Shown piece by piece: positions 19,234 to 48,901 of a DNA stretch of 48,901 nt. The notes beneath the pieces are model-generated. The model searched no databases and was not told the DNA's origin. It saw only the letters and a program-made list of their open reading frames with translations. Within the stretch, counting starts at the first letter, position 1, and each line of letters opens with the position of its first letter. Origin of the DNA: a virus (lineage: Duplodnaviria > Heunggongvirae > Uroviricota > Caudoviricetes); the IMG/VR virus record IMGVR_UViG_3300045988_155985; one strand, 5' to 3'. The translations under genes were made by a program, and so were the position numbers.

Positions 19234-19444
19234 TTATAGAACGGTTCAAGGGGACTCATGGGATAGTATCGCGTTAAAGTTGTATGGTAATGAGTACCTG
19301 TCTTATCTTCTTATTGATGCTAATACTGAGCACCGATTCACGGTGCTTTTTTCTGCGGGAATTATTCTTAAAGTTCCTGATGCTCCGGTTATGCCAATAT
19401 CAGTAAACAATTTGCCTCCGTGGAGACGCAATAGTGTTACGTAA
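19226..19444 (+). CDS. small tail protein, P2 gpX-like (LysM-like)
   Basis: 72 aa directly after tape measure; TTG start. Confidence 0.5.
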   Translation: MDDYRTVQGDSWDSIALKLYGNEYLSYLLIDANTEHRFTVLFSAGIILKVPDAPVMPISVNNLPPWRRNSVT

Positions 19445-26364: not shown

Positions 26365-26892
26365 TTATTCAGGCTTTTGTGGCCATTCAGGATTTGCCGT
26401 ATCCACACGGCTGACCAGAACACTGTAGCGTTCCCATGATTCCAGTCGTGCGCGTTCCTCATCCGTCGCCATATTCAGCCTGACAGCGCGCTCCAGTGGC
26501 TGAATAACGCTTTCTGCTTCGGAAAGTAACGCGGCCTTTTGTGATTCGGCCTGTTGTTGCTGTTCGTCAGCCGTATAAATCCGTTTAACCACAGCTCCGT
26601 CCTTAAACATCCACTTACCGGAATCATCGGCCCGACGATTGGTTGTTATATCGGGAACCTCAACGACGCTAAAACCTTCAGGGTTAAGCGTGGATGCATC
26701 TTTGGTGATGGCGACAATAATATTATTTTCATCGTAAACAATCTTTATGGTGTCTGGCTGAAAGTTTTTCACTTCCTCATACCAGTTTTTTCCGTCCTCA
26801 GAGTAAAGCCAGATAACTCCGTGTTTCTTTGTTAACTCATACTGTTCCAGTGTTTTAGCGTTACCCGCTTTTATGTTCTTTAAGTGCATCAT
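26365..26892 (-). CDS. alternative tail fibre assembly protein (silent orientation)
   Basis: 175 aa; paralogous N-terminus [14 protein letters not shown]; convergent to 25803-26336. Confidence 0.75.
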
Positions 26893-26893
26893 A

Positions 26894-27904
26894 TTAAACG
26901 CTCGCTACATTATACCAGGTGCCATTTATATACTTTTGAACGGGTCTGTAATAAACGCCCGCTATATTATCGGCAGAATTGGACCCTGTATCCTGAACAT
27001 TAATACCAGTCAATACATGACCTGACGGGCACTGGAAATTCCATGTTTGCCAGTTGTTCACGCCATAATATTGCTGTGAACCAAGTCGAACATCTTTCAC
27101 ATAACGGGAATCAAAGTTACCGTAATCTGAGGGATTAACACGCCCTGTAATATTTATGGTTTTATTACTTTGAATACTGCCGGAGACAAAGCGCATAACA
27201 TGGACGTTATTAGCATAAACATCCAGATACCCGTCGCCATTTTGTTTAAATCCCGTGTCATTATCACCCAAAACAATCGAGTTACCGCCAAGAGCACTGG
27301 ATGTACCGATGCCCAGTGCACCATTCAATTGACCTCCAGATAATGACAACGCCCCAACATCAGCAGCAGTCGGTTTAATGTGCGAACTGTAAATTACATA
27401 TACAGTTCCATCTGTCAGACCTGTTGGTTTATTCGCTGTATAAGTTGGTGATGTATGAATCGTTACGCTGGCGTTACTGGTATAATCCCACTGAATATTA
27501 ACACCTGTGGCGTAATTACCTATTTCAACATAAACATCATAGGTATCACCTGATGTATTCACCCATGCAAAATTAGTAAATCCAACCGATGTCCGTCGCC
27601 ATAACGCACCAGTAAGACCTTTTGGATTTCCATTTCCCGCACGAAGAACAAGTTCAGATATACCAGCCTGCATAGGGGAGTTAACATTATATCCAGCACC
27701 ACCAATCAGGCTTATGTAAACCACGGAACTGGCTTGTGGCATTGTTACAGTTGCCAGTTTGAACCATCCAGCACCACCACTAAAAGACATGGTTGTTGAA
27801 TTTGTTGTGCCGATATTACGCAGGAATAGTTTTTTATCGGGAATATCTGCGCCGTTCTGGTTTTTCTGTAATGCGCCAGAAGCCTGATTTACCGTTTCCT
27901 GCAA
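26894..27904 (-). CDS. alternative tail fibre C-terminal variable region (promoterless until inversion)
   Basis: Track start is TTG; encodes LQETVNQ which continues the fibre frame across the crossover site; shares [17 protein letters not shown] and C-terminal [11 protein letters not shown] with the plus-strand fibre. Confidence 0.7.
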
Positions 27905-27985: not shown

Positions 27986-28540
27986 ATGCAATATGGTTAT
28001 GCGAGGGTGTCAACTTTTGACCAGAATTTGGAATTACAACTGGAGGCGCTCAGGAGTTTAGGATGTGACCGGATTTTTGAAGATAAAATATCCGGTGCTA
28101 AATCAAAACGACCAGGACTTGATAAGCTACTTAAGGTGTTACGGCCGGGCGATACGGTTATTGTCTGGAAGCTGGACCGAATGGGGCGTTCTCTGATTCA
28201 TCTTGTTGATTTACTTAACCATTTTTTATCAAACAACATTGAGTTTATTTCGATTACGGAAGGGATAAAAATTAGCACTTCAATTGGCCGCTTTGCCTAC
28301 ACGATGCTGAGTGCAGTCGCAGAGATGGAGCGGGAAAATATGATTGAAAGAACGCGTGCAGGATTGGCGGTGGCAAGGGCTAACGGCAGGATAGGAGGAC
28401 GCCGCTCAAAGCTGGCACCAGAGCAATGGGAACAGATCGGAAGGCTTATTGCGAATGGTGTTTCACGTAAGCGGATAGCGATTATCTTCGATGTTACCTT
28501 ATCCACGCTTTACCGCAGGTTTCCGGCTGGGAATCATTGA
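27986..28540 (+). CDS. serine-recombinase DNA invertase (Hin/Gin/Cin family)
   Basis: N-terminal GYARVSTFDQ with catalytic Ser, central resolvase motifs, C-terminal HTH; adjacent to the invertible segment. Confidence 0.9.
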   Translation: MQYGYARVSTFDQNLELQLEALRSLGCDRIFEDKISGAKSKRPGLDKLLKVLRPGDTVIVWKLDRMGRSLIHLVDLLNHFLSNNIEFISITEGIKISTSIGRFAYTMLSAVAEMERENMIERTRAGLAVARANGRIGGRRSKLAPEQWEQIGRLIANGVSRKRIAIIFDVTLSTLYRRFPAGNH

Positions 28541-28685: not shown

Positions 28686-28729
28686 TATGATTGTGGGTGT
28701 CTGGTTGGAAAGTGACCAGATATGGAAAC

Positions 28730-28850
28730 AAAAAGCCCGCAGATAAATCTGCGGGCTTCTTGCGACATCCACGGAAAACCAACAATTAACCATGGGCGCC
28801 TCGACAACTCCCATTATACGTTGGTTTTCCGTGGACGCAAGAGCGAACAT
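28730..28850 (-). ncRNA. candidate CopA-like antisense RNA against the repA leader
   Basis: Minus-strand terminator (hairpin 28735-28756 followed by T-run on the minus strand) and a 15-bp-stem hairpin at 28769-28834 just upstream of the repA ATG. Confidence 0.3.
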
Positions 28851-29699
28851 ATGGATAGACCAATGCCGTCTCTACGTTCAGCTTACGTTTGTAATTTGTC
28901 GCCGGAGTTCCAGCCTCCAAAGCACCATACGCACAAGCTGCCGCTGGTGTTATCTGATGCTTTACAGCGCATTAATGGGCGTGATCTTACGTGTGAGGTT
29001 GCGTTCTACGTTAATCAACCGTCAGAGCGGAAGCGCCGGATAAACGAGCATCGTCGTCGGGCGATTAATGCTGTGATCGCTGCGATTTTGCACCATGTAA
29101 ACATCATTTCTAAGCGGGTTCTGGCTAGTGCTGAGGCGTTGGCTGATTTTTGCGGCCTGTCTACCGTATCCGAAGCTGGGAACAAGTCTATAACGCGCTG
29201 TACAAGGGCGTTGTCGCAACTGAAAGCGTTAGGTTTTATTGATTATGAACGTCGCTGGGATCGGGTGAATAAACAGTATTGGCCAGCGAAAATAGAGATT
29301 CGTGATCAACTGCTGGAAACCGTTGGTATTACTGAACAAGCATGGAGACGTGCGGTTAGCCAGAAACTTAATTACTTCAATGCGAAGAATAGCGAACGGC
29401 TTAAAAAAGCGATAACGGAGGCTGATTATAAGCGTATTGTTATTCAGGAGCAGATGGAGAATGTATGGCGTCAGAGGAAGACGGCCAGAGAGATAAAGGC
29501 AAAACAGAAAGCAGCGGAGAGAGCTGCGCGTCTTGTTCGGGAAAAGGGAGAGGCCGAACTTCGTCATCAAATCACTAGAGAGGTTAGCCAGGAATTTGCT
29601 GATGGCATGTATCCTGGAGCTGACCTTGCATATTTACGATCCCTCGTTGAGCAGCGTTATAACAGGTTAAGAAAGACCTGGAAATCACTCCAACATTAA
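28851..29699 (+). CDS. repA: plasmid replication initiator RepA, IncFII RepA1-like
   Basis: Segment GNKSITRCTRALSQLKALGFIDY matches recalled RepA1 GKLSITRATRALTFLSELGLITY; basic C-terminal half; ATG 28851 preferred over track start 28722 because the leader is structured. Confidence 0.7.
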   Translation: MDRPMPSLRSAYVCNLSPEFQPPKHHTHKLPLVLSDALQRINGRDLTCEVAFYVNQPSERKRRINEHRRRAINAVIAAILHHVNIISKRVLASAEALADFCGLSTVSEAGNKSITRCTRALSQLKALGFIDYERRWDRVNKQYWPAKIEIRDQLLETVGITEQAWRRAVSQKLNYFNAKNSERLKKAITEADYKRIVIQEQMENVWRQRKTAREIKAKQKAAERAARLVREKGEAELRHQITREVSQEFADGMYPGADLAYLRSLVEQRYNRLRKTWKSLQH

Positions 29700-32126: not shown

Positions 32127-32280
32127 TTGGCACCTCAAATTGTTTAAAATGTGTTAATTACAAAATTCAGCCGATACCATGTTCAATGGTATAGCATTGC
32201 TGAAATGTCTTTTTCAAGACCTTGCCAATAAGCTAAACAAAAATGTTTAATGCTTCGCCTAAAAAAACACCAGTTACTAT

Positions 32281-32393
32281 TATTTATATAATTATAGATT
32301 TATATAAAAAGTGCTTTACAGGTGGGAAAAAATTTCCTAAGGTTATACCCGAAACCGAGCGATACCCGCCCTGGTTAAACCGGAGATAACCCG
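32281..32393 (+). promoter_or_regulatory. promoter-operator-leader cassette, copy B
   Basis: AT-rich repeat 32281-32310; -35-like TTTACA 32315-32320; 17-bp spacer with inverted repeat GGAAA-AAA-TTTCC; -10-like TAAGGT 32338-32343; conserved 50-nt leader. Confidence 0.5.
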
Positions 32394-32774
32394 ATGAGCA
32401 TGATTAAAATCCGCAAAAACGCTTTCCTTAAAATTCAAACTATCCTGGCTGGTTCTGTTGGCGTGATTTGCCGTTCTTCCTCAAGCCGCATCGATGACGG
32501 CTACGATGATGAGTATCGTGTGTCCTCATGCGATGAGGCTTTAACCTGGCTGAAGGAGAATCAGGAACGTGCCCAGGTATATCTGGAAACAGAGAACGGC
32601 AATCAGATGCTGCGTATTAGCGGTCGTTATGGATTTGAAACTACATTCATGGCCTATTTTAATCAGGCTTACTTTGACAAGGAGTTGGCTTGGTACACTG
32701 ATCGCATGAGCAAAAGCGAGCCAGCCCCGATTACACCGCCGAACAATAAACCATTTTTATTCCTCGTTAAGTAA
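32394..32774 (+). CDS. hypothetical protein, 126 aa, first gene of cassette B
   Basis: ORF track; ATG within conserved leader context. Confidence 0.5.
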   Translation: MSMIKIRKNAFLKIQTILAGSVGVICRSSSSRIDDGYDDEYRVSSCDEALTWLKENQERAQVYLETENGNQMLRISGRYGFETTFMAYFNQAYFDKELAWYTDRMSKSEPAPITPPNNKPFLFLVK

Positions 32775-33919: not shown

Positions 33920-35065
33920 TTATGGTCTGCTTTTCTGTGCCAGCTTATCAGCACATGTTTTTATCAGATCCTGTAGTGTCCTGGCTGGCAGGTTTGCATC
34001 CAGAACGCTGAGTATGCTGTTGTGATCAGCCTGGTCGACTACTTTGCCTGTCGGTGGTAGTAGCTTGAGCTGAGGATTCAGGTTTTCGTCAAAGCTGATA
34101 AGTGCTCTGGCGTTTCTGAGCAGATCAAGAAGTAAGGCTGATATCACATTTTCCTGAGTCATTGCTGGCAGATTTAGCGCCGCTTTAGTTTTCCCTGTTG
34201 CCTTGTCAAACTCCTTGATTAGTTCCTTCCTGTAGTTCGGTTCCGTTAATAGCCGATTATGCTCTGTTGCCGCGCGGATAATCGTTTTTTCCTGGTATAG
34301 TCGTTTAGCCAGATCACGCTCGTACTGTGTTTTTAACACGCTGCTGATAGCGTTAAAGGCTTCAATGTAGGCCAGCTTGATATCTTTCACGCCTGGACCG
34401 TCGATGCTCTCCATGAGCAAGGTAAATCCGTCTTTTGTCATGCGATAGATTGTTATTTCGCGGTCGCTTCCTTCCAGCGGTCGTTGTTCTTTAAAAAAGT
34501 GACGCGCCGCAGCTGTGCGAGGAATGCGTAACGCATCGATGGCCATAACGATGGAATTGTTTGTGGTGCTGAATGCCTGGGCAACATCGGCTGAGGTTGT
34601 GAGTGGCTCGTTATTGCACACCTTAATGTAAAACATCGGTTTGGCGTTGAGCGTATCGACAACCTCACGAGCATTGTTTGGCGAGACGGTTACGGTCGCG
34701 GCCGTTTGCGCGTTCTGGTTGAAATAGCAGTCTTCCAGTTTTTCGAACACATCCCAAGCCTGATCGGTTTCAAGCATTTTGGCGTGACGTGCAGCCCCGC
34801 GTTCTGTCCAGAGGATGAGGGAGCGGACTTTAGGTGAAACTGGATTTTGTGAGTAGTTTAAAGCTACCCGCAATTCTTTAAGGTCATTACCAACAACTTT
34901 GAAAAAGTGTTTCCCTTCAACGAAACGTACTTTGTTCTCATGATGATTCTGGCGAATACGCACCGGCTCAGTGCCGTAAAGCTGTGCCAGTAACTCGGTA
35001 GTAATGACAGGGATTTGGTTATGCAGGATAGGCTGTAGGGTGTTAACGGTCGGAAGCGTTTTCAT
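33920..35065 (-). CDS. antirepressor (Ant-like) with ORF6N/Rha-like domains
   Basis: 381 aa; N-terminal VITTELLAQLYG and central ADVAQAFS segments resemble antirepressor/Rha-family domains. Confidence 0.7.
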   Translation of the reverse strand: MKTLPTVNTLQPILHNQIPVITTELLAQLYGTEPVRIRQNHHENKVRFVEGKHFFKVVGNDLKELRVALNYSQNPVSPKVRSLILWTERGAARHAKMLETDQAWDVFEKLEDCYFNQNAQTAATVTVSPNNAREVVDTLNAKPMFYIKVCNNEPLTTSADVAQAFSTTNNSIVMAIDALRIPRTAAARHFFKEQRPLEGSDREITIYRMTKDGFTLLMESIDGPGVKDIKLAYIEAFNAISSVLKTQYERDLAKRLYQEKTIIRAATEHNRLLTEPNYRKELIKEFDKATGKTKAALNLPAMTQENVISALLLDLLRNARALISFDENLNPQLKLLPPTGKVVDQADHNSILSVLDANLPARTLQDLIKTCADKLAQKSRP

Positions 35066-35253: not shown

Positions 35254-35418
35254 TGTGATGATTCCCTTAAAGGTTAAGGATACTCACCACCGTCAGGTTC
35301 CAATCATTGGGTGGTGAGACGTGCAGGGTTGGAACTACCGGACACAATGACGAACCGGCGAGTCTTACGACTCCCCCGCACGCCCCACCATAATTTGGGT
35401 GTAGCAGTGCTTTACGCA

Positions 35419-35440
35419 TAAAAAAACCGCTAACGCGGTA
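35419..35440 (-). terminator. minus-strand rho-independent terminator
   Basis: On the minus strand: hairpin ACCGCGTTAGCGGT followed by TTTTTTT. Confidence 0.5.
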
Positions 35441-35585
35441 TGCGCCATTGTGTCTACGGGGTTCCAATCCCGACCGTAGATTTTGCTACGGCTCGGAAAG
35501 TGTCCACCAATGGCGCATTCATGTCAATACGGCGGGATTTTAACAGAGACAACCACATAGCGTGGGTTTATTGGTAGGCAGAAAC

Positions 35586-35760: not shown

Positions 35761-35999
35761 AATGAAGTTTTTTAACTTCTTCGGATGTAATTACATGTAA
35801 TAAAAGCATTTGTTATTCCTTCATTATGAAGGCGAGGACGTGTAATATGGCTTGGGGCCTTTTCGCCGATTCGCACCCGGGCACCGACTTTAAGGAAAGG
35901 ATCATCCACTTGCCGTACACGCAAGCACAAGCGGTGTGCTTGCTCTCGCGTCATTTTCGTCGGTGGAGATGCCGTGAAACGGCCTGTAAGGGCCACACA

Positions 36000-36122
36000 A
36001 TGAAAAAATACTACATGTGTATTTTTATCGTTGTTACTGGAGCTTTGTTTACGCCACATGGGGAGGGTTGGAAGATTACTGATAACGCTCTGAATGTGAC
36101 GATAAACATTAGCAGCAAGTAG
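36000..36122 (+). CDS. small hydrophobic peptide, 40 aa
   Basis: MKKYYMCIFIVVTGALF N-terminus; ATG 36000; strong terminator immediately downstream. Confidence 0.3.
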   Translation: MKKYYMCIFIVVTGALFTPHGEGWKITDNALNVTINISSK

Positions 36123-36128
36123 CGATTA

Positions 36129-36150
36129 GGCCCCTTCGGGGGCCTTTTTT
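36129..36150 (+). terminator. rho-independent terminator
   Basis: Hairpin GGCCCC-TTCG-GGGGCC followed by TTTTTT. Confidence 0.6.
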
Positions 36151-36627: not shown

Positions 36628-36664
36628 CCCCTCTTATATAAATCTATAAAACTATAATTATATA

Positions 36665-37318
36665 TTACGCGGCAGTAGTCAGAGCCTCAAGCTGGTTGAT
36701 AATCCCCTGAATAACGTCGTCTGCCTTTTTGCGTGGCGCAACGTATGAGCACTCAATGAGGCTTAAGCCCTTATCCTGAGCTTTGCTCAGAGCTGGCTTG
36801 TGGGGAATGTACTTATCGACAACAAAGTATGGCGTATTAGCCAGGTACTCTTGGGCTTCAATATAGTCAGCTTCGTTTTCAGCCGCGCCGGAAAACACCA
36901 TGCAAATTTTCTTGATTGGTACACCCTTTTTAACGATGCCGTGAGCTGTGTTAACGGTGGTTTCCAGGTCATCGGTAGAGAATCTGGTTGGTAAAATAAC
37001 CATATCCAGAAATTCAGAGAGCTTCGGTACTGATTCAGATGCGTAGGCACCGCCATCGACGATAACCAGGTCGTATACTTCTGATTCGATGATTTTCTGG
37101 ACTTGTGATGGTGTGCCGCACGGCTGCGCCGCGATTGCTGGTTCGATATTGTTGGCCATTCTGCGTTGTACCCAACGCGTTACCGTTCCGTTAAGCACAT
37201 CCATATCGATCAGGCATACATTCCAGCCGGCCTTTGCATAAGCAACTGCTAAAGCACGGGCAATTGTTGATTTGGTTACGCCGCCTTTTCCGTTGAAAAT
37301 ACCTACAGAGATAGTCAT
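36665..37318 (-). CDS. parA: partition ATPase, small ParA (ParF-like, type Ib)
   Basis: Deviant Walker A GKGGVTKST; about 217 aa; ATG 37318 (track start 37333). Confidence 0.85.
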   Translation of the reverse strand: MTISVGIFNGKGGVTKSTIARALAVAYAKAGWNVCLIDMDVLNGTVTRWVQRRMANNIEPAIAAQPCGTPSQVQKIIESEVYDLVIVDGGAYASESVPKLSEFLDMVILPTRFSTDDLETTVNTAHGIVKKGVPIKKICMVFSGAAENEADYIEAQEYLANTPYFVVDKYIPHKPALSKAQDKGLSLIECSYVAPRKKADDVIQGIINQLEALTTAA

Positions 37319-37341
37319 TTGTCGAGACTCCATGTGTTTGG

Positions 37342-37446
37342 TTATATAATTCTATAAATCTATATTTATAGAACGAGGTAAGCATAACCAACTTTTTGGC
37401 GGATGAAAAGCGTTTTATATAATTATATAAAACTATAATCATATAA
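37342..37446. repeat. AT-rich TATAATTATA-type repeat cluster upstream of parA; candidate centromere/operator
   Basis: Two blocks (37342-37373, 37412-37446); a related block at 36632-36667 between parA and parG. Confidence 0.4.
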
Positions 37447-37464
37447 GCGGGCGTTAGCCCGCTT
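37446..37464 (-). terminator. hairpin downstream of the minus-strand gene 37469-37843
   Basis: GCGGGC-GTTA-GCCCGC followed on the minus strand by AT-rich sequence. Confidence 0.35.
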
Positions 37465-40738: not shown

Positions 40739-41116
40739 GTGAGACGCGATCTGGATAGCTTGTTTGAGCTATGGGCGCTGTGGGTGCGCAATGGCTGCAA
40801 CGCCCGTAGCGGTTTCGCGTCGATGTTAGAAATGATGATGGTTACGCGCTGCCAGTTTACCGGAGGGGGCGGCGCACCAAATGACTCACTGGAAACCAGT
40901 ATCGAGGGAGCGGTGACGGCCCTCACGGTAGTTGATGAGACTGCGGCGCTGGTTGTCCGAATTGAATACGGGGCGTGGGAGATTCGGGGCCTCGACATAA
41001 ATGCACCGCATATTGATAAAGCCCACGCCCTTTCTCTTAGTCTCAGACAGTATCGCCGGAAGCTGGCAAAAGCCAGGGCGTATGTTGTCGACTATTTGAA
41101 AAAGCGAAGAGAGTAA
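40739..41116 (+). CDS. putative late-gene antiterminator, Q-like
   Basis: 125 aa; pattern LWALWVRNG...GFASM...LRQYRRKLAKARAYV resembles Q-family; sits before a promoter cassette. Confidence 0.4.
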   Translation: MRRDLDSLFELWALWVRNGCNARSGFASMLEMMMVTRCQFTGGGGAPNDSLETSIEGAVTALTVVDETAALVVRIEYGAWEIRGLDINAPHIDKAHALSLSLRQYRRKLAKARAYVVDYLKKRRE

Positions 41117-41166
41117 AAGTGTCATTTTGAGCTGTTTTGATGGTGTGTAGACATCGGTAACATCGA

Positions 41167-41285
41167 AAATCTATAAATATATAATTATAGATTTATATAA
41201 AAAGTGCTTTACAGGTGGGAAAAAATTTCCTAAGGTTATACCCGAAACCGAGCGATACCCGCCCTGGTTAAACCGGAGAAATCTG
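41167..41285 (+). promoter_or_regulatory. promoter-operator-leader cassette, copy C
   Basis: AT-rich repeat 41167-41203; TTTACA 41208-41213; spacer with GGAAA-AAA-TTTCC; TAAGGT 41231-41236; conserved leader. Confidence 0.5.
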
Positions 41286-42353
41286 ATGAATAAACAAGAA
41301 ATTATTTCTGACTGGATCAACAACCCTAACAGCCTGTTAAGCACTGATACTGGCTACCTATTACGCCATGTTAATGGTCGTATGGTCAAAAGCGATGAGC
41401 ACGAAACCTTTTTCTTTGTTGAAGACGATGGGCGCATCTATGAGGATGGTTACTCTTATGAAGCCCAAACTGGTTGTATCCCTGCGGAGCTGGTGGACGT
41501 AACAGAAGATCTGCGCAAAGCATGGCTTGAACAGCAGCAGCGCGGAGATGATTACGTAAACACCTATCAGGAACGCCAGAACGCGCGTCTTGCCCGATAT
41601 ATTGCTCGTGCAGAAAAAGCCAGAAAAGAAGGTGCGGTAGCGCATAAGCGAGCGCATGACCTGTTGGATGTGATCCCGTTAGGCCAGCCGATTTTAGTTG
41701 ACCATTATAGCGCGAAAGGCCATCGCCGCCGTTTGTCTAAAGCTGATGCGTTATTAAGAAAAGCGTTTGTTGAATGCGAAAGTAAAGCATCACACTACGA
41801 GAGCAAAGCCGCAGGTGTTGGTCGTAATGGAATTTCGTCTGATGATCCTGATGCGCTATTTAAGTTGCTTCGTAAGCTGCAAGGCTGCATGAAGTCACAC
41901 GTCAAAATGAAGGCCGCAAATAAGGCCATTCGCAAATACAAAAAAGACCAATTACAGCAGCTTTCTGCATTAATCGATCTCAGGTTTACAGAAAGCGAAG
42001 CCAAAGAGTTACTGGCCGGAGATTTCTGTGGGCGCATCGGATTCCCTTCATACGCACTGAGCAACAATAACGCCGAAATCAAACGACTACAGAGCCGTAT
42101 TAAGGAGCTTGAATCGGTCAAGTCTGTAACAGGAGCACAGCGCGAAGAATACGACGGCTTTTCTATGGAGATAGATCCAGAGGATAACCGCATCCTGTTT
42201 TATTTCCCTGGCAAACCAGAGGCAAACATTCGTTCGCTGCTTAAATCACGCGCCTTTAAGTGGAGTCCAACCCGTAATGCATGGGTTCGCAAGATTACTC
42301 CAAACGCCCTGGCTGATGCCCGATATCTAAAAGAATCGCTATTGAAAGCCTGA
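41286..42353 (+). CDS. hypothetical protein, 355 aa, first gene of cassette C
   Basis: ORF track; basic helical C-terminal half; no catalytic motif recognised. Confidence 0.5.
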   Translation: MNKQEIISDWINNPNSLLSTDTGYLLRHVNGRMVKSDEHETFFFVEDDGRIYEDGYSYEAQTGCIPAELVDVTEDLRKAWLEQQQRGDDYVNTYQERQNARLARYIARAEKARKEGAVAHKRAHDLLDVIPLGQPILVDHYSAKGHRRRLSKADALLRKAFVECESKASHYESKAAGVGRNGISSDDPDALFKLLRKLQGCMKSHVKMKAANKAIRKYKKDQLQQLSALIDLRFTESEAKELLAGDFCGRIGFPSYALSNNNAEIKRLQSRIKELESVKSVTGAQREEYDGFSMEIDPEDNRILFYFPGKPEANIRSLLKSRAFKWSPTRNAWVRKITPNALADARYLKESLLKA

Positions 42354-42363
42354 CAGTAAGCCT

Positions 42364-42390
42364 ACGGCGGGACGTCTCCCGCCGTATATA
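42364..42390 (+). terminator. hairpin/terminator after the 355-aa gene
   Basis: Perfect 9-bp stem ACGGCGGGA-CGTC-TCCCGCCGT followed by AT-rich tract. Confidence 0.4.
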
Positions 42391-42430
42391 GAATTATATA
42401 TTTATATAAATGTATAAGGACGCCTCGACA

Positions 42431-42712
42431 ATGAAACGCAAAATTATTAACCCCCAAGATGTGATTAATTTCCTGACCGATCACCCATGTTCAAAAGTGG
42501 ACGTAATCGCGGAGCACATTGGTGTGTCGCAGAACTCTATGCGTTGCAGACTGAGAAGCATGGTTGCCGAAGGACAGATAACAACCAGGAAAATAAATGG
42601 TTGCCTGTACTACTCCGCTAAACCGGAATTGCCATTTGGCATGAATCCTAACTCCATGTTGTTTAACACCTTATTAGCCAAAGTTAAGCCGTTGAGAGGG
42701 GCTGTGGCATGA
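42431..42712 (+). CDS. winged-helix DNA-binding protein
   Basis: HTH-like DVIAEHIGVSQNSMRCRLRSMVAEGQI; ATG 42431 after AAGGA (track start 42410). Confidence 0.45.
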   Translation: MKRKIINPQDVINFLTDHPCSKVDVIAEHIGVSQNSMRCRLRSMVAEGQITTRKINGCLYYSAKPELPFGMNPNSMLFNTLLAKVKPLRGAVA

Positions 42713-43074
42713 GCATCAAAACCCATACCGGAATAATCATCACCATTGATGGTGAGAAAAAAGTGAAGTTACGCGAAACGCCGACAACCTGGTGTGTTGG
42801 TCTGAAAGAAACATATCGCAAGGAAGATGGGCGCCGTTGTGGGTCGCCACTTTCCAGCCGTCGCCTCCTTTTGAGCACGATAAAACCTATCGGGCAGGTT
42901 GAGCAACCAACGACTCCGGTAACGAAGATTTCAGACAAGAGTCTGGCAAACCTGATCGCTGATGCGGACAAGGTGCTGGAGCGAAACACCCCCGTTGCAG
43001 ATGAGGAATGGTGGCAGGATTTCCGAGCCGCAATGCTAGAGCTTCAGGAACGTCGTCGGGAGGAGTTGAAGTGA
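42709..43074 (+). CDS. hypothetical protein, 121 aa
   Basis: ORF track; RBS GAGAGGGG. Confidence 0.45.
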   Translation: MSIKTHTGIIITIDGEKKVKLRETPTTWCVGLKETYRKEDGRRCGSPLSSRRLLLSTIKPIGQVEQPTTPVTKISDKSLANLIADADKVLERNTPVADEEWWQDFRAAMLELQERRREELK

Positions 43075-43262
43075 GCAAGAAAAATGCCGGATGGGTCAGG
43101 CCAATGAAGGCGAATAAACATCATTATTTTAATGAAGGTGAAGTAACCAGCATTTGCGGCCGTTGGATGTATTTTGGTGATTACCGTGAGCCAGACACTT
43201 TTGAGAGTCCTGATGATTGCGTGTCTTGTCGCCGGAAATTGAACAAGGTGGCTTCTAAATGA
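43071..43262 (+). CDS. small Cys-containing (zinc-ribbon-like) protein
   Basis: GTG 43071 after GGGAGGAG overlapping upstream stop; ICGRW...CVSC. Confidence 0.4.
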   Translation: MSKKNAGWVRPMKANKHHYFNEGEVTSICGRWMYFGDYREPDTFESPDDCVSCRRKLNKVASK

Positions 43263-43957
43263 AAGAACGTGGTGTTGTTTTTAATGACGATATGGTTAGG
43301 GCCATCCTCGAAGGAAGGAAGACGCAGACTCGCCGACCTGTAAAAAATGTCAGGGCCGATAACTGCCTGGTTATCCGTAAACCGACAAAGAAACGCAATG
43401 GTGTCTATACCCACGTTATGGATGCACCGGAACATGGTTTATGCCCGTTCGGTAACGTTGGTGATCGCATATGGGTCCGTGAAGCGTGGGCGATATTAGG
43501 CAATGAGGATGGTTGCAGTGTGGACTGGAACGACAACCTTTGTCATGGCGATGAGAAGAACGCAGCAAGGATTTATCGGGCCAGTTGCGAGCAAAAGCCT
43601 GGTGATTACGGCCTGTGGTCGATCCCCGATGATGCCGACTGGAAACCTCACACTGTGAATGAAAAGTTTGATGGCGGGTGGTGTCCATCAATTCACATGC
43701 CGCGCTGGGCTTCGCGTATTTTGCTGGAAATTACCGACGTGCGTGTGGAACGGCTGCATGACATGAGCGAGGCAGATGCTAAAGCGGAAGGCGCATCTCC
43801 GGCGACGTACAAGATTACACCGCCGGAAGCTGTTTATCGCGTTGGCTTTGGTGATATCTGGCGCGGTATTTACGGGCAAGAGAACTGGCTATCTAACCCG
43901 TGGGTATGGGTAATTGAGTTTAAGCGTATTCAGGAGGCAACCAGTGAGCAAGATTGA
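43259..43957 (+). CDS. hypothetical protein, possibly ASCH-like
   Basis: N-terminal MVRAILEGRKTQTRRP and GDRIWVREAW segments; low-confidence recall. Confidence 0.4.
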   Translation: MKERGVVFNDDMVRAILEGRKTQTRRPVKNVRADNCLVIRKPTKKRNGVYTHVMDAPEHGLCPFGNVGDRIWVREAWAILGNEDGCSVDWNDNLCHGDEKNAARIYRASCEQKPGDYGLWSIPDDADWKPHTVNEKFDGGWCPSIHMPRWASRILLEITDVRVERLHDMSEADAKAEGASPATYKITPPEAVYRVGFGDIWRGIYGQENWLSNPWVWVIEFKRIQEATSEQD

Positions 43958-44372
43958 CTATCAGGTACTGCGTGAGGCAGCAGTAGCAATTGAAACAGTA
44001 GCAACGCCTCAAAAATTGCTGGCATTTCGTATGAAAGTCACACCTCAGGTTGTGCTGGCACTACTGGATGAACGGGAAGCAGACAAAAAGCGCATTGCAG
44101 AACTGGAAGCTCGGGAAATAAAACCAGCCAAAGGTGAAGTTCTTGTCGTTGTTTCTGGTTTTACTGGTTGCGGAAAAAGCGCCATTGCCGGGGAAATAGA
44201 AATCGCGATGAAGGCTATTGGTGTACCGGTTCAGTGGACTAATGGCGATGCGGAAAAGCGCATGACAGGAGCTGACTGGCTGACAGAGATTGAGATGTAC
44301 AAACCAACAGTGCGCATCGTGGAAGTTAATGTGCCACGCGCCGCTGGCATTCGCATCAAAGGAGGTGAGTAA
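43944..44372 (+). CDS. hypothetical protein, about 142 aa
   Basis: GTG 43944 after CAGGAGG (track start 43914 is TTG). Confidence 0.4.
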   Translation: MSKIDYQVLREAAVAIETVATPQKLLAFRMKVTPQVVLALLDEREADKKRIAELEAREIKPAKGEVLVVVSGFTGCGKSAIAGEIEIAMKAIGVPVQWTNGDAEKRMTGADWLTEIEMYKPTVRIVEVNVPRAAGIRIKGGE

Positions 44373-44548
44373 TGCGTGTGGCATGTATCGGCTTGTTACC
44401 GTACCCGACTCGTTTTTGGGCTTCTGCGCTAATTGCAAAGCCACATGTCCTGATGGCTGACAACATCATCCCGGCACCAAAGCGCCGCCATACCGGTATT
44501 GCATCGGCACGACGAGCAGCAAAGAGACGCAGGAGAGCAAAACGATGA
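44372..44548 (+). CDS. small protein with very basic C-terminus, 58 aa, not in the ORF track
   Basis: ATG after AAGGAGGTGA; C-terminus RRAAKRRRRAKR; coupled to flanking genes. Confidence 0.35.
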   Translation: MRVACIGLLPYPTRFWASALIAKPHVLMADNIIPAPKRRHTGIASARRAAKRRRRAKR

Positions 44549-44733
44549 AAAACCGTAAAGCAAAGATTCTGTTAGTTCGTAGAAACGCTCCTGGCGTCTG
44601 GCAGTGGGTGAGACTCAGCAACCGACGGATGGGGTTAATGAAACATTACGGGATGATGGATTGTGGTTTTTGCAAAAAGCCCAGCGCGGCGCAAAACCGC
44701 TGGAAAAACCATTTGCGCACTAAAGGAGAGTGA
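44545..44733 (+). CDS. hypothetical protein, 62 aa
   Basis: ORF track; ATGA overlap. Confidence 0.35.
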   Translation: MKNRKAKILLVRRNAPGVWQWVRLSNRRMGLMKHYGMMDCGFCKKPSAAQNRWKNHLRTKGE

Positions 44734-44734
44734 T

Positions 44735-45250
44735 ATGGCGTTAACACACCGCGAACTCTGTCAGATTGCGTACAAGTTCCTTAAGCGCAACGGGTTCAAG
44801 GTTTGTTTTCATGACCGCTTTATAGCTGTAACCAGTACCGGAGAACAGCCAGATGCTATGGGATTCAGAAATTCAGCATCATGCCTGATAGAGGCGAAGT
44901 GTTCTCGTGCTGATTTGTTGGCAGATAGAAAAAAGCGTTTCCGTAAAAATCCCTCACTTGGCATGGGCGACTGGCGATTCTTTATTAGTGAGCCGGGAAT
45001 TATTTCAATTGAGGATTTACCACCTGGCTGGGGATTACTTCACGTTGTTAACGGAAGAGTACGGAAAGTACATGGGTGGCCCAAGGGTAATTGCTGTTGG
45101 GGTAATCCTGACGATAAGCCATTTACTGGAAATAAGCAGGTTGAATGCGATTACATGTTATCTGCATTAAGGCGCATGGAGTTGAGAGGGCACCTTAATG
45201 AAATATATGACGGTGTAATCCTTAATAAGCAAGAAGGAAACGCGGCATGA
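44735..45250 (+). CDS. putative PD-(D/E)xK-type nuclease
   Basis: ATG 44735 after AAAGGAGAG; candidate motif PDAMG ... IEAKCS. Confidence 0.4.
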   Translation: MALTHRELCQIAYKFLKRNGFKVCFHDRFIAVTSTGEQPDAMGFRNSASCLIEAKCSRADLLADRKKRFRKNPSLGMGDWRFFISEPGIISIEDLPPGWGLLHVVNGRVRKVHGWPKGNCCWGNPDDKPFTGNKQVECDYMLSALRRMELRGHLNEIYDGVILNKQEGNAA

Positions 45251-45651
45251 CCACTGTAACCGACAAAGAACTGATTAAAGAAATCAAAGAGCGCATAGGC
45301 AGCCTGGACGTGAGAGACAATATTGAGCGCCGTGCTTATGAAATTGCTCTGGCGTCGCTGGAAGCAGAGCCAGTGCTTTATATGAACCGATTTACCGGAA
45401 AGACATTCTCACTGGAAGGGCAACCAGGAGCAGATAAGGAGCCGGAAATATACGTGCCGCTATACACTGCTCCGCCAGCGCCGGTAGTGCCTGATGATGG
45501 TCGCGAACAGTTCGAAGCACTTGTCAGGTTTCATGCGGATGATAAAAACCATGAAACATTATTGCTTCGTGCTAACGAAGGGATGAATTACCAGGACCCG
45601 AATGTTGATCTGGCGTGGATATTCTGGAAGTCCAGTCGTGAACATATATAA
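45247..45651 (+). CDS. hypothetical protein, 134 aa
   Basis: ORF track; ATGA overlap. Confidence 0.45.
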   Translation: MTTVTDKELIKEIKERIGSLDVRDNIERRAYEIALASLEAEPVLYMNRFTGKTFSLEGQPGADKEPEIYVPLYTAPPAPVVPDDGREQFEALVRFHADDKNHETLLLRANEGMNYQDPNVDLAWIFWKSSREHI

Positions 45652-45993
45652 GCTGTAGTGAGAAGCCATGCGATTACGAGCAGTATTCAGATATTCAGAG
45701 CGGGTAATGAAGCACATACAACCGAAAACATGGCAGAAACTGGACTCTATGGGAGCTAAGTTGGAGAAGATTACTCAACTTAAGCAGTGGCATATCGGCG
45801 AATATTATGGAAGTCCTGGTCGGGATGTTCGGTTGGTAAAAAGTTGAACATTGATTTTTTATTGATCGATTAACCACGATGTGAAGGTTTTTTTATGGGA
45901 AAACCTTGTTTTAGGTGGTAACTGGGTGTAGTGTTTCATTTAACGTAGTAAAACTGCGTTAAGCGATTACCGCGTAATTTGTTGCTTTATGAA

Positions 45994-46024
45994 GCCCTGC
46001 CTTTTTCGGCGGGGCTTTTTTTTT
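45994..46024 (+). terminator. rho-independent terminator immediately upstream of the lysis genes
   Basis: 8-bp stem GCCCTGCC-TTTTTC-GGCGGGGC followed by T9. Confidence 0.6.
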
Positions 46025-46037
46025 AACGAGGATTTCA

Positions 46038-46433
46038 ATGTCAGCAGAACCAATTTCCGGTACGGCCGTTGCTGCTGGTGGCCTGATGGGTGCCAGCGTT
46101 TTTGGTATTGCAACTGGTATTGATTACGGCGTTGTATTCGGGGCATTTGCTGGCGCTGTTTTCTATGTTGCTACAGCGGTGAATATTAGCCGTCTCAAGC
46201 TGATTGGCTATTTCTTTACATCGTTCATTGTTGGAGTGATTGGAGCGCCGTTAGTTGGCTCATTTCTTGCCAAATGGACCAGCTACAACGATCGTCCTCT
46301 TGATGCACTTGGTGCGGTTATTGTGGCTGCATTGACAATTAAAATCCTCACGTTCGTAAACAGCCAGGATCTCGGTAGCATCTTTGGAATGCTTTCCCGC
46401 TTACGTGGAGGGGGTTCAAATGGTAAGCAGTGA
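46038..46433 (+). CDS. holin-like membrane protein
   Basis: 131 aa with several hydrophobic helices; first gene of the lysis cassette. Confidence 0.6.
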   Translation: MSAEPISGTAVAAGGLMGASVFGIATGIDYGVVFGAFAGAVFYVATAVNISRLKLIGYFFTSFIVGVIGAPLVGSFLAKWTSYNDRPLDALGAVIVAALTIKILTFVNSQDLGSIFGMLSRLRGGGSNGKQ

Positions 46434-46716
46434 CCCGTCAGCACTGATTAATGCGGTGCTTTGCACAGTAATAGTAATGGCGCTGATGCTTTATCGACGG
46501 AAAGACTCCAGGCATCGTCCATTTGTTTCCTTTCTGGCTTATATCTACGTCATTGTATACGCCAATGTTCCCTTCCGTTATGTGTTCGGTCTTTATCAAG
46601 AATCCCACTGGCTGGTGGTTATTGGAAATCTGATTATCTGCATCGTTGTTCTGTATTTCAGGGGCAATCTGGCGCGGATAGTTGACGCATTAGGGTTTAA
46701 TCATGACCAAAGATGA
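46420..46716 (+). CDS. second membrane protein of the lysis cassette
   Basis: Three hydrophobic helices; ATG 46420 after GGAGGGGG overlaps holin 3' end (track start 46384 is TTG). Confidence 0.45.
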   Translation: MVSSDPSALINAVLCTVIVMALMLYRRKDSRHRPFVSFLAYIYVIVYANVPFRYVFGLYQESHWLVVIGNLIICIVVLYFRGNLARIVDALGFNHDQR

Positions 46717-47245
46717 GATTTTTAACAGCGTTCTTGGAAAAGAGGGCGGCTATGTGGATCACCCTGACGACAAGGGAGGCCCAACAAAGTGGGGCATTAC
46801 TCAGAACACTGCCCGTGCTCATGGATATCGTGGCGATATGCGCGATTTAACCCGCGAACAGGCACTGGAAATCCTTGAGGCTGATTACTGGTACGGACCA
46901 CGCTTTGATCAGGTGGCCGCATTATCCTCTGATATTGCCGCAGAGCTGTGTGACACGGGGGTGAACATGGGGCCAACAGTGGCGTCAAAAATGCTTCAAC
47001 GCTGGCTGAATGTGTTCAACCTGCGCGGGAAGCTGTATCCCGATTTGGATGCAGACGGACGAATCGGTCCACGTACCATTAATGCGCTACGTGCTTATCT
47101 TGGGAATCGGGGAAAAGACGGCGAACGGGTGATGCTGACGTCGCTGAACTGTACGCAGGGCGAACGCTATCTGGAGCTGGCGGAGAAGCGCGAGGCTAAT
47201 GAGTCGTTTGTCTACGGCTGGATGAAAGAGCGAGTGGTGGTATGA
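46703..47245 (+). CDS. endolysin, GH108-like N-terminal domain with peptidoglycan-binding C-terminal domain
   Basis: N-terminal GKEGGYVDHPDDKGGPTKWGIT resembles GH108 signature. Confidence 0.75.
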   Translation: MTKDEIFNSVLGKEGGYVDHPDDKGGPTKWGITQNTARAHGYRGDMRDLTREQALEILEADYWYGPRFDQVAALSSDIAAELCDTGVNMGPTVASKMLQRWLNVFNLRGKLYPDLDADGRIGPRTINALRAYLGNRGKDGERVMLTSLNCTQGERYLELAEKREANESFVYGWMKERVVV

Positions 47246-47520
47246 CTGGTTTGAAAGCCGTTTTGTCATTTATCGGCACCGTTATATTGGTTGCATTCGG
47301 TGCGTTTGGTTTTGGTCGTATGAAGGGGCGAGAAAAGGCCGAAGATGAAGCTGAAAAGCAGCGCATTAATGAGAATGCAGCCGCTGTAAAAGCCACTGCG
47401 GAGCGGCGTATAGAAGTGACAAAAGAGGTGGGGAATGTACAGCAGAGTGTTAACCATATGGCTGATGACGATGTTGATCGCGAGCTGCGGGAGTCGTGGA
47501 AGCGTCCCGGTGGTGGTTGA
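47242..47520 (+). CDS. i-spanin (Rz-like)
   Basis: N-terminal TM helix then charged helical region; overlaps endolysin stop. Confidence 0.55.
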   Translation: MTGLKAVLSFIGTVILVAFGAFGFGRMKGREKAEDEAEKQRINENAAAVKATAERRIEVTKEVGNVQQSVNHMADDDVDRELRESWKRPGGG

Positions 47521-47644
47521 TACCGCCTGTGATTGGGTAAAGCCCATCTACCTGACTGATCACGACATCGATGTTATGGACCGCCAGACAAAGAAAGATA
47601 TTCTGGCTCATAACAGGGCATGGGAAATCAACTGCCCAAAGTAA
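47435..47644 (+). CDS. o-spanin (Rz1-like lipoprotein), overlapping the i-spanin in another frame
   Basis: Lipobox-like LIASC with Cys at residue 18; starts inside 47242-47520. Confidence 0.6.
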   Translation: MYSRVLTIWLMTMLIASCGSRGSVPVVVDTACDWVKPIYLTDHDIDVMDRQTKKDILAHNRAWEINCPK

Positions 47645-47813
47645 TATATATTTCTGTAATTATATAAATATATAGTTACAACATTCTATGCGCTTTTCTC
47701 ATGAGCGCACGCATCAACCATGTTTGTCTGATATGCCGCCGCGCCCAAAAATCCTGAATTTATTGGCTGGGATTTTCGTGCGCGGCGCCACACCAGACAA
47801 ACAGATCAAATAT

Positions 47814-47889
47814 GGCCCCTTAGCTCAGTGGTTAGAGCAGGCGACTCATAATCGCACGGTCATCGGTTCAAATCCGGTAGGGGCCACCA
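47814..47889 (+). tRNA. tRNA with CAU anticodon (Met or lysidine-dependent Ile2; resembles ileX-type)
   Basis: Perfect 7-bp acceptor stem GGCCCCT/AGGGGCC; D-arm GCTC/GAGC; anticodon loop CTCATAA; T-arm with TTCAAAT; encoded 3' CCA. Confidence 0.85.
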
Positions 47890-48102
47890 ATTCACTCTCA
47901 CACATAAAGATGAGCACGAAGGAAGTAACTCCACCGCGCTTATCTTTATGCGTGCCTGGTGCGCATTTCGGGCGAACGTGGGGCTAAGTTACAGGCAGGG
48001 CCTGTTATCCGCAAAGGGGTAAAAGCTGGAGCGGCACGGAACTGTAGCCGTGTTACCAAAACAGCGTTGTCGGGCGATATCCGGCACACAACAGGCAAGG
48101 GC

Positions 48103-48135
48103 ATTAATCAGTCTGGTTAGTGCCCTTTTCGTTGT
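48103..48135 (+). terminator. hairpin/terminator downstream of the tRNA
   Basis: GGGCATTAATCAGTCTGGTTAGTGCCC followed by TTTTCGTT. Confidence 0.4.
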
Positions 48136-48197
48136 GTTTGCTGTAGAGCTGGCCAGCGTTATGACTGCCGGAGATAAGCGCCGGAGACACAACTAAC

Positions 48198-48785
48198 ATG
48201 GAGGCAATTGCATTGTTTAATCTGATTTATGCAGATCCCCCCTGGGAATACAAAGACAAGTGTAAGGATGGGAATCGTGGCGCTGGTTTTAAGTATCCAA
48301 CGATGAAAGCTGAGGATATTGCTCGTATTCCTGTCTGGCAGCTTGCTAATCCTGAATCGTGTTTGTTGGCCATGTGGTGGGTTCCGACTCAGCCAGAAGA
48401 AGCGTTGCTGGTGGTGAAAGCATGGGGATTCAGGCTGATGACCATGAAGGGCTTCACATGGAACAAATGTGGTAGCCGACAGCCAGACAAGCTGGTGATG
48501 GGGATGGGGCATATGACTCGTGCAAACAGTGAAGATTGCTTGTTTGCGGTAAAAGGCAAACTGCCGACCCGCCTTGATGCGGGGATTATTCAGTCGTTTA
48601 CATCGCCTCGTCTGGAGCATTCTCGGAAGCCTGATGTGGTCCGTGACAAGCTGGTAAAGCTGTTAGGCGATGTTCCTCGTATTGAGCTGTTTGCTCGCGG
48701 TGATTTACCTGATGGCTGGCATGGCTGGGGCAACCAGTGCAACGGAGGTATCCAGTTGCATGATGCTCTCTGGCAAATGTCATAG
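48198..48785 (+). CDS. DNA N6-adenine methyltransferase, MT-A70 family
   Basis: LIYADPPWEY (DPPW motif); 195 aa. Confidence 0.75.
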   Translation: MEAIALFNLIYADPPWEYKDKCKDGNRGAGFKYPTMKAEDIARIPVWQLANPESCLLAMWWVPTQPEEALLVVKAWGFRLMTMKGFTWNKCGSRQPDKLVMGMGHMTRANSEDCLFAVKGKLPTRLDAGIIQSFTSPRLEHSRKPDVVRDKLVKLLGDVPRIELFARGDLPDGWHGWGNQCNGGIQLHDALWQMS

Positions 48786-48901
48786 AATTATATAATTATA
48801 GATTTATATAAAAAATGCTTTACAGGTGGGAAAAAATTTCCTAAGGTTATACCCGAAACCGAGCGATACCCGCCCTGGTTAAACCGGAGATAACCCGATG
48901 A
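48786..48901 (+). promoter_or_regulatory. promoter-operator-leader cassette, copy D (same physical copy as window start on the circle)
   Basis: AT-rich repeat 48786-48815; TTTACA 48819-48824; spacer with GGAAA-AAA-TTTCC; TAAGGT 48842-48847; leader continues as 1-55. Confidence 0.5.

Follow-up and report, generated by a model that had tools for sequence, protein, structure and literature searches.

The lysis cassette of a phage-plasmid is predicted to be expressed only by polymerase that passes a strong intrinsic terminator placed directly before it. We analyzed a 48,901-nucleotide (nt) stretch of caudoviral DNA (IMG/VR record IMGVR_UViG_3300045988_155985; the whole stretch is hereafter called the window), in which five lysis genes (46038-47644: two holins, a GH108 endolysin, an i-spanin, and an o-spanin) follow a conserved structured leader and the terminator, with no recognizable promoter of their own; the same logic was seen in relatives. 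Dependence of lysis on terminator read-through is well supported by these sequence features. In the reading that we favor, at slightly better than an even chance, the cassette would be silent behind the terminator and would be opened late by a termination-resistant polymerase.

The pre-holin terminator and the lysis cassette

The elements of the terminator and the cassette are as follows (aa, amino acids; bp, base pairs).
45991-46024, + strand: predicted intrinsic terminator with an 11-bp stem, a 6-nt loop, and nine T residues
46038-46433, + strand: holin, 131 aa, about four hydrophobic segments; Phage_holin_8 PF16931 (E 1.7e-37), phrog_198
46420-46716, + strand: second holin or antiholin, 98 aa, three membrane segments; Phage_holin_3_7 PF05449 (E 8.9e-18), phrog_217
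46703-47245, + strand: soluble endolysin, Glyco_hydro_108 and PG_binding_3, no membrane segment
47242-47520, + strand: i-spanin, 92 aa, N-terminal membrane segment; phrog_1026 (E 5.9e-32)
47435-47644, + strand: o-spanin, 69 aa, lipobox LIAS-C; phrog_1275 (E 2.9e-33)

The terminator stem (45991-46018) reads GAAGCCCTGCC/TTTTTC/GGCGGGGCTTT and contains seven GC pairs, the T-run occupies 46016-46024, and the predicted fold has an energy of -20.5 kcal/mol (z = -5.1 versus shuffled sequences). When terminators were defined strictly (a perfect stem of 8 bp or more, 5 or more GC pairs, and 7 or more T in 9), five sites were found on the whole + strand of the 48.9-kilobase (kb) window, against 0.04 expected by chance in simulated sequence; from 41177 to the window end, the pre-holin site is the only canonical strong terminator on that strand. 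The holin is the first gene after it, and the 13 nt between the end of the T-run and the holin ATG (46038) contain a GAGG Shine-Dalgarno motif. The original prediction had placed a strong terminator directly before the holin gene, and the stem, the nine T residues, the z score, and the 13-nt gap bear this out: by its sequence, the element is a strong intrinsic terminator. In the other lineages that carry this region (see below), the terminator hairpin is kept and its sequence differs by lineage.

We searched 45600-46060 for promoters with a sigma-70 consensus scan and with a looser scan. The consensus scan of this interval found no sigma-70-like promoter, and the looser scan returned a single weak match, inside the open reading frame (ORF) at 45668-45847, an ORF that is replaced in some relatives. 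The weak candidate TTGATT-17-CACGAT (45852-45880) was rejected: its -10 hexamer becomes CACATT, CACAAT, or CACAGA among family members, and it also sits in the most variable stretch of the module (34% variable columns). Since no promoter was found in 45600-46060 and the T-run lies a mere 13 nt ahead of the holin, lysis transcripts must cross the terminator. A promoter of the cassette's own within 45652-46037, the finding against which the original prediction had been set, did not appear in these sequence scans.

The lysis module itself is canonical, with a holin, a second holin, a soluble endolysin, and overlapped two-component spanins. The second holin gene shares 14 nt with the first, for which the coding sequence called by PGAP in a near-identical RefSeq plasmid is the same as ours. 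The first four lysis genes match in that annotation and the o-spanin is not called, an omission that is usual in genome annotation. The i-spanin is hydrophobic over residues 1-27 by hydropathy, the o-spanin carries the lipobox sequence MYSRVLTIWLMTMLIAS-C, and phrog_1026 and phrog_1275 are both labeled "Rz-like spanin." The pair is ~88% identical at the DNA level to part of the spanin pair of phage mEp390, where the homologous genes are annotated as two Rz-like spanins. As had been proposed, the o-spanin gene begins within the i-spanin gene and ends beyond it: it starts in the +1 frame, overlaps by 86 nt, and runs 124 nt past the i-spanin end. P2 LysB/LysC-type spanins have the same design, an o-spanin lipoprotein gene that begins in the +1 frame inside the i-spanin gene and runs past its end (PMC6139136), and nothing in the window differs notably from it, the i-spanin being short at 92 aa. 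A survey of 528 two-component spanin systems counted 228 as overlapped, 182 as embedded, and 118 as separated (PMC6139136); the overlapped arrangement found here is the commonest known architecture and is ordinary. In an alignment of 13 close family members, variable columns make up 21% of the endolysin gene versus ~2% of both holins and 5% of the spanins, which makes the endolysin gene a recombination hot spot in an otherwise uniform lysis module.

The structured leader

The pre-holin region had been read as a terminator alone. The terminator stands, and a second conserved element next to it had been overlooked.
45864-45990, + strand: structured leader upstream of the terminator, consisting of helix P1, stem-loop 1 (SL1), a linker, SL2, and an A/U-rich stretch

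The 190-nt intergenic region folds with -59.7 kcal/mol (z = -5.1 versus shuffles). RNAalifold indicated that helix P1 (ACCAC/GUGGU, 45873-77 with 45915-19) is invariant and that SL1 (45884-45907, followed by UUUU) contains three pairs with compensatory changes. A G/U-rich linker joins SL1 to SL2 (45936-45966), which is again invariant, and the A/U-rich stretch precedes the terminator. Leader homologues were found in three further lineages: a Klebsiella aerogenes relative (L114), a metagenomic sequence (L128), and Salmonella plasmids (L121/L122). Over the four lineages, the leader precedes two unrelated lysis cassettes, the second type consisting of a 95-aa holin and a PF00959 lysozyme; all 31 distinct copies precede a lysis cassette, and the leader stays with the cassette even where another gene has taken the place of the upstream one. 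All four lineages have a TTGAnC hexamer (45862-67). In addition, 45913-45931 contains an AGGTGG Shine-Dalgarno-like motif followed 7 nt later by a GTG-TAG start-stop mini-ORF, of which GTGTAG is invariant in the four lineages.

A 57-nt core within 45903-45960 is 91 to 96.5% identical across lineages, compared to 67 to 79% for the flanking genes. In the close family, the 3' part of the leader has 1.5% variable columns, compared to 1.8% for the holin genes, and the 5' 65 nt have 34%. At this depth the 3' leader varies as little as the holin genes do, and an added constraint on it was therefore rejected; in these alignments, constraint on the leader is visible only against the lineages that are 67 to 79% identical. 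The leader suggests either local control or an RNA product.

We compared the leader with known RNAs. GcvB (RF00022) gave the best unexplained subthreshold Rfam match in the window (34.7 bits, with the gathering score at 42 and an E value of 4.5e-4 over the whole window; 34.7 to 36.3 bits within the window family), and the order of a 5' hairpin, a G/U-rich linker, a hairpin, and a terminator is that of the GcvB Rfam layout. Membership was nevertheless rejected. The score lies below the gathering score, drops to 25.7 bits in the K. aerogenes relative, and gives way to no match in the homologous leaders of the Salmonella plasmids, and the alignment to Escherichia coli GcvB is poor outside the terminator, with no correspondence in primary sequence there. 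A false-positive Rfam match with a similar E value fell on the antisense strand of a tRNA. STnc100 (RF02076) was rejected as well, at 23.4 and 15.6 bits in the window versus a gathering score of 47. An RfaH ops site (GGCGGTAGnnTG) in the G/U-rich linker was rejected, only look-alikes with three mismatches being found, 243 in the window versus 249 expected. Among phage mRNAs, no target of the linker at a translation start was better than those of shuffled linkers.

Small RNAs that end in a terminator beside holin-lysozyme operons are documented (PasA, PasC, PasD, and STnc100); PasA, PasC, and PasD1 directly adjoin the holin/lysozyme operon, and the 5' end of PasA arises by cleavage of a longer transcript (bioRxiv 10.64898/2026.05.13.724894). 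StxS is a short PR' transcript that is terminated in lysogeny (PMC7547250). The leader resembles the Pas/STnc100/StxS RNAs in being a structured RNA of ~80 to 200 nt with an intrinsic terminator directly 5' of a holin-lysozyme operon, and in having a conserved single-stranded stretch and a conserved terminator fold. Unlike them, it was found among complete E. coli genomes only on ~48-kb plasmids and at one chromosomal place, and no promoter was detected. In an indirect test for Pas homology, blastn of 5,426 complete E. coli genomes did not find the leader in chromosomes carrying Pas RNAs; by this measure, the leader is not detectably a Pas homologue. The leader could be an RNA made by termination or processing of accessory transcripts, a cis site for regulated read-through, or both, the two roles being compatible.

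Upstream elements, relatives, and the possible source of read-through

The region from which transcripts could reach the terminator contains the following elements.
40739-41116, + strand: "Q-like" candidate transcription factor, 125 aa, last gene of the early rightward block
41165-41290, + strand: cassette C, an AT-rich 8-bp-repeat element (41165-41206) with a conserved ~85-nt leader, a ribosome-binding site, and a start codon
42363-42383, + strand: GC-rich hairpin after the DUF3560 gene, -18.9 kcal/mol, z = -4.3, no clean U-tract
42384-42418, no strand: AT-rich repeat element of the cassette repeat type without the cassette leader; no sigma-70 consensus match
42410-45847, + strand: co-directional accessory block, mosaic among relatives, ending with a 59-aa ORF (45668-45847, phrog_9594)
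47638-47678, no strand: AT-rich repeat element directly after the o-spanin stop, before tRNA and methyltransferase genes; same position in the K. aerogenes relative

Three 114-nt cassettes that are 92 to 99% identical occur in the window (32272-32397, 41165-41290, and 48780-48901/1-55). Cassette C includes a sigma-70-like GTAACA-17-TATAAT (10/12) at 41157-41185, of which the -35 is not common to the other two; its leader showed no terminator or pause signal, and its fold has z = -0.8. Eight AT-rich elements, built of 8-bp units (TTATATAA / TTATAGAT), lie at 32272-32313, 36632-36668, 37341-37373, 37412-37447, 41165-41206, 42384-42418, 47638-47678, and 48780-48822, where they sit at the heads of operons and flank the ParA gene on both sides. 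In relatives, elements occupy corresponding places and are built of a lineage-specific repeat (GATATAAA in L111 and AATAAATA in L109, two distant phage-plasmids). This suggests that a phage-specific DNA-binding protein uses the elements, which would overlap promoters, as operator or centromere-like arrays. Cassette C had been named as the nearest late promoter, ~4.7 kb upstream. The cassette is real and present in three near-identical copies, but the AT-rich element at 42384-42418 is nearer: it is the closest promoter-like element 5' of the lysis genes, 3.6 kb away. Its position is kept in the K. aerogenes relative, which also has a counterpart of the 42363-42383 hairpin at the same place.

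Genes from 41286 to 45847 are packed tightly in one direction. Pfam matches in the accessory block are limited to Ead/Ea22 and a weak FaeA match, and the region 43075-45675 is swapped among family members. Beyond the lysis cassette, the tRNA at 47814-47889 has a CAU anticodon and is called tRNA-Met by ARAGORN and tRNA-Ile, i.e., the lysidine-type Ile2, by PGAP in the near-identical plasmid. A weak rydB-like Rfam match (48136-48195) lies upstream of the MT-A70 methyltransferase gene, after a terminator-like hairpin at 48097-48127, and recurs at the same place in three lineages (L114, 10750-10805; L121/L122, 4839-4902), with 25 to 28 bits against a gathering score of 50.

The pre-holin site is accompanied by other strong + strand terminators inside co-directional late blocks. 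Those at 295-318 (-18.8 kcal/mol) and 1169-1190 (-16.6 kcal/mol) are downstream of cassette D and ahead of later late genes, the former directly after the first small gene (52-273) and the latter just before the gene at 1210; those at 19328 and 26340 are within the structural block. A late region punctuated in this way would fit a processive-antitermination design. The layout of cassette D and the terminators at 295 and 1169 mirrors that of cassette C and the pre-holin terminator.

Related loci show a similar arrangement. Holins that are 65 to 83% identical are found in lambdoid prophages of Klebsiella, Enterobacter, and Citrobacter. A terminator-like hairpin (-10 kcal/mol or better, with a T-run) was present within 150 nt in 49 of 65 distinct upstream regions of related holins, compared to 19 of 127 coding control segments, and most of these terminators end 45 to 50 nt ahead of the start codon. 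Terminator sequences differ among related holins, and hence it is the feature, not the DNA, that is conserved. Several of these holins have genuine Q genes upstream, which belong to PF06530 (E 5e-53), DUF1133 with PF06530, and PF03589, and STnc100 scores above threshold just before the holin at two loci (L061, 84.4 bits; L047, 62.1 bits). The lambdoid loci (L011 to L090) also have a conserved CCCCTC-N6-GAGAGGACTCACGGCAATAAGAGGGGG after the terminator, ~5 to 50 nt ahead of the holin start, an element that the window does not have; the CCCCTC could pair with a GAGGGG Shine-Dalgarno sequence, a possible translational control of the holin.

Phage-plasmid relatives extend the comparison. In L111 and L109, the Q-like protein is 59 to 63% identical and the AT-rich elements have a different repeat motif. 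L111 has one AT-rich element right after the Q-like gene and another directly before a terminator and a Phage_holin_8/Phage_holin_3_7 pair (14898-14990), and in L109, the order of element, terminator, and operon occurs twice (15864 onward). A promoter-like element immediately before a terminator implies regulated read-through in these two genomes. The K. aerogenes relative, in which backbone genes are 67 to 79% identical, keeps the whole order of genes and elements: cassette, DUF3560 gene, hairpin and AT-rich element, accessory genes, 59-aa ORF, leader, terminator, and lysis genes, and then AT-rich element, tRNA, methylase, and cassette. As in the window, no AT-rich element stands before its leader.

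In the lambdoid late operon (lambda, 21, 82, and Shiga toxin [Stx] phages), the order is Q, PR', a short 6S/StxS/STnc100-type RNA, tR', and S/R/Rz/Rz1. The window shares with it a strong terminator immediately before the holin, lysis genes that would be silent unless polymerase is termination resistant, and a candidate regulator gene just before a promoter-like cassette; in Stx phages, accessory "moron" genes (stx and nanS-p) likewise lie between the late promoter and the lysis genes (PMC7547250). It differs in that its terminator is 3.6 to 4.7 kb from the nearest promoter-like elements, not within 200 nt; in that its regulator belongs to no Q family by sequence and its promoter cassette is present in three copies; and in that it is a plasmid prophage with IncFII RepA and ParA, not an integrated one. 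By this analogy, the terminator gate is a known lambdoid principle in a new setting.

The candidate regulator has the position of Q: the Ref nuclease and DUF1064 genes precede it, and cassette C follows closely. Its sequence had no Pfam hit at E <= 10 beyond noise and none of the Q domains PF03589, PF06530, and PF06323; in NCBIfam, PA0613_fam was matched at E 2.5e-4, far below the cutoff, and the PA0613 literature contained nothing on transcription. Sequence and profile searches found no match in the PDB, and hhalign against twelve PF06530-type Q proteins aligned a W..W / GF..L / R.QC motif with ~1% probability. Membership in a Q family was rejected on these results, all of which were negative or far below cutoffs. 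An AlphaFold model (predicted local distance difference test 77.5, from an alignment of 23 sequences) was searched with Foldseek; the top six matches in the PDB were Q21 chains, all weak (E 0.24 to 0.56; template-modeling score 0.44 to 0.52), with sigma region-4 domains next. Matches in BFVD were small uncharacterized phage proteins with a sigma-region-4-like fold, some of them automatically named sigma-like. We consider the 125-aa protein likely to be a small RNA-polymerase-directed transcription factor, and we give roughly even odds to a Q21-like antiterminator. The earlier "Q-like" label thus keeps the support of position and of Q21 at the top of the fold search, but the protein is in no Q family by sequence and the fold match is weak.

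A comparison with N and nut sites gave the following. SL2 forms a hairpin of 9 bp capped by a UAAAA pentaloop, with UUUAAC ahead of it, and the site is single copy; no conserved N-like gene was found, and the only arginine-rich ORF is 44372-44548, in the mosaic region. This 58-aa ORF fits exactly between its neighbors and is missing in some relatives; its arginine-rich tail (ARRAAKRRRRAKR) recalls the arginine-rich motifs that bind RNA.

In our favored model, the lysis cassette would form the far end of an array that starts at cassette C and/or 42384-42418, separated from it by the structured leader and the very strong terminator, which would act as a gate. In the plasmid-prophage state and in early lytic growth, accessory transcripts would stop at 46024 and the lethal lysis genes would stay silent; in late lytic growth, polymerase made termination resistant by a phage function would read into them. 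Our candidate for this function is the 125-aa sigma-4/Q21-like protein, whose gene directly precedes cassette C and which may act together with the conserved leader. There is no terminator after the o-spanin, and polymerase would thus run on past the lysis genes to the tRNA, methyltransferase, and structural genes. We infer from this arrangement that read-through takes the form of active antitermination, and we nominate the protein and the promoter at the same level. The original idea that lysis needs antitermination through the accessory operon holds in that read-through is required (there is no promoter, the gap is 13 nt, and the genes are co-directional), but cassette C is only one candidate for the source promoter, and the 125-aa protein only a candidate Q.

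Several points weigh against the model. Known Q proteins load at a promoter-proximal pause and have their terminator within ~200 nt, unlike the 3.6 to 4.7 kb that separate the pre-holin terminator from the promoter-like elements. The AT-rich elements are taken for promoters on indirect grounds; they also flank ParA and could be operators or partition sites. No antiterminator was recognized: none of the sequence tests placed the Q-like protein in any of the three Q families, its match to the Q21 fold is weak, and a scan of 40 window proteins turned up no gene resembling N, NusG, or RfaH. In Vibrio phages, moreover, the homologue of the Q-like gene again follows DUF1064 but is succeeded by overlapping genes, with no promoter gap.

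The leader might instead hide a dedicated late promoter, non-consensus or factor-dependent and analogous to PR', that would give a terminated RNA of ~140 to 160 nt in the prophage state. The antiterminator would then load at the leader, and lysis would be independent of transcription through the 3.6- to 4.7-kb accessory block. Lambdoid relatives with Q, a short terminated RNA (STnc100 at L061 and L047), and then a related holin provide a precedent, as do L111 and L109, where an AT-rich promoter-like element immediately precedes the terminator and lysis genes; the leader, moreover, travels with the lysis cassette whatever the upstream gene, and the TTGAnC hexamer is present in all four lineages. 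We consider this unlikely: there is no -10-like hexamer at a workable distance, the promoter would have to lie in the 5' 65 nt of the leader, its most variable part (34% versus 1.5% for the 3' part), and the leader has no AT-rich repeat element of the phage's own type. Dedicated antitermination might also be dispensable, with the terminator serving as the 3' end of the accessory operon and as an attenuator and passive read-through of a few percent sufficing for lysis. No antiterminator is recognizable by sequence, lysis proteins are needed only in modest amounts, and a weak terminator (SL1 plus UUUU) in tandem with a strong one resembles insulation. Yet a GC-rich 11-bp stem followed by nine U residues is expected, from general knowledge of intrinsic terminators, to be very efficient; the structural genes are also behind strong terminators (295 and 1169, with internal ones at 19328 and 26340), and abundant virion proteins would be hard to make by leakage. 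The promoter-terminator-operon design furthermore recurs in L111 and L109, and passive leakage seems to us quite improbable.

A further possibility, compatible with the gate model, is that the leader and terminator (~45864-46024) are mainly the gene for a trans-acting, Hfq-type small RNA, released by termination or processing from the accessory operon's 3' end like Pas, STnc100, and StxS, its pre-holin position being secondary. The strong fold (z = -5.1), the long U-tail after an A/U-rich stretch, the conserved single-stranded G/U-rich linker, a core better conserved than the flanking genes, and compensatory change in SL1 and the terminator would all suit such an RNA, as would the subthreshold GcvB match and the precedent of PasA, PasC, and PasD1 beside the holin/lysozyme operon (bioRxiv 10.64898/2026.05.13.724894). 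On the other hand, no promoter was found, the GcvB score is not maintained among homologous leaders, and no translation-start region of the phage pairs with the linker better than with shuffled linkers. The leader copies precede a lysis cassette in every case and never stand elsewhere, which a cis role would explain equally well. A primary role in trans appears doubtful to us. The broader proposal, that the ~160 nt of 45864-46024 are a new RNA family of an enterobacterial phage-plasmid clade with a function beyond termination, we put forward tentatively, as a possibility short of an even chance.

The phage-plasmid setting

The first 55 bases of the window recur at its far end, indicating a circular genome of ~48.85 kb. 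Its gene content (an IncFII-type RepA, a ParA ATPase, an S24/XRE repressor, a DNA invertase, and myovirus structural genes), together with a C4 RNA, identifies the window as a phage-plasmid of ~48.8 kb. The features that bear on plasmid maintenance and immunity are listed below.
28722-29699: IncFII RepA
33920-35065, - strand: Rha/ORF6N antirepressor-like gene, adjoined by the C4 and isrK RNAs
35307-35395, - strand: C4 antisense RNA, above the Rfam threshold (77.8 bits)
35420-35505, - strand: isrK, above the Rfam threshold (67.7 bits)
35853-36150, + strand: ryfA, above the Rfam threshold (138.4 bits)
36665-37333, - strand: ParA

The 190-nt pre-holin region is present in 70 of 5,426 complete E. 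coli genomes by blastn, at 71 places, 70 of which are on plasmids of ~47 to 50 kb and one of which is chromosomal. Carriers include a 48,488-bp plasmid of ATCC 25922 and the plasmids NZ_AP022818.1 and NZ_CP009073.1, and the element also occurs in Escherichia albertii, Escherichia fergusonii, K. aerogenes, and Salmonella. Identity to the window is 95 to 99% in the Yersinia phages vB_YpM_39, 41, and 44, which are unannotated; the literature on vB_YpM phages contained nothing on transcription.

The window shares with P1-type phages the plasmid prophage state, the regulatory set of a C4 antisense RNA, an a1/b1 target, and isrK next to a Rha/ORF6N antirepressor-like gene, and repeated operator-like elements scattered at the heads of many operons. 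Unlike P1, it is about half the size, its repeat sequence is different, and an Lpa-type late activator was not recognized in it. The c4 a1/b1 target is an Rfam match below threshold beside the Rha/ORF6N gene, and the C4/isrK/ryfA group looks like the P1/P7-type antisense immunity module. A Gin/Cin-type serine invertase gene (27986-28540) lies beside tail-fiber-like ORFs of opposite orientation (26365-27904, - strand), an arrangement that points to a host-range segment able to invert, as in Mu and P1.

For this plasmid-borne prophage of many clinical E. coli strains and of the reference strain ATCC 25922, the gate would be a way of silencing lethal genes behind accessory genes, and the accessory genes upstream of it are perhaps expressed during carriage. 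Should an antitermination factor exist, it would lie outside the three known Q families, which makes a new family a testable proposition. The conserved leader, a new lead of modest weight, brings one more candidate to the prophage RNAs that are known, in growing number, from beside holin operons. If it is indeed a new RNA family, it might be a stable Hfq-type small RNA that pre-holin termination would free in the plasmid-prophage state to act on host genes, or it might be a promoter-distal, nut-like loading site at which a new phage factor, neither Q nor N, would admit polymerase to the lysis genes.

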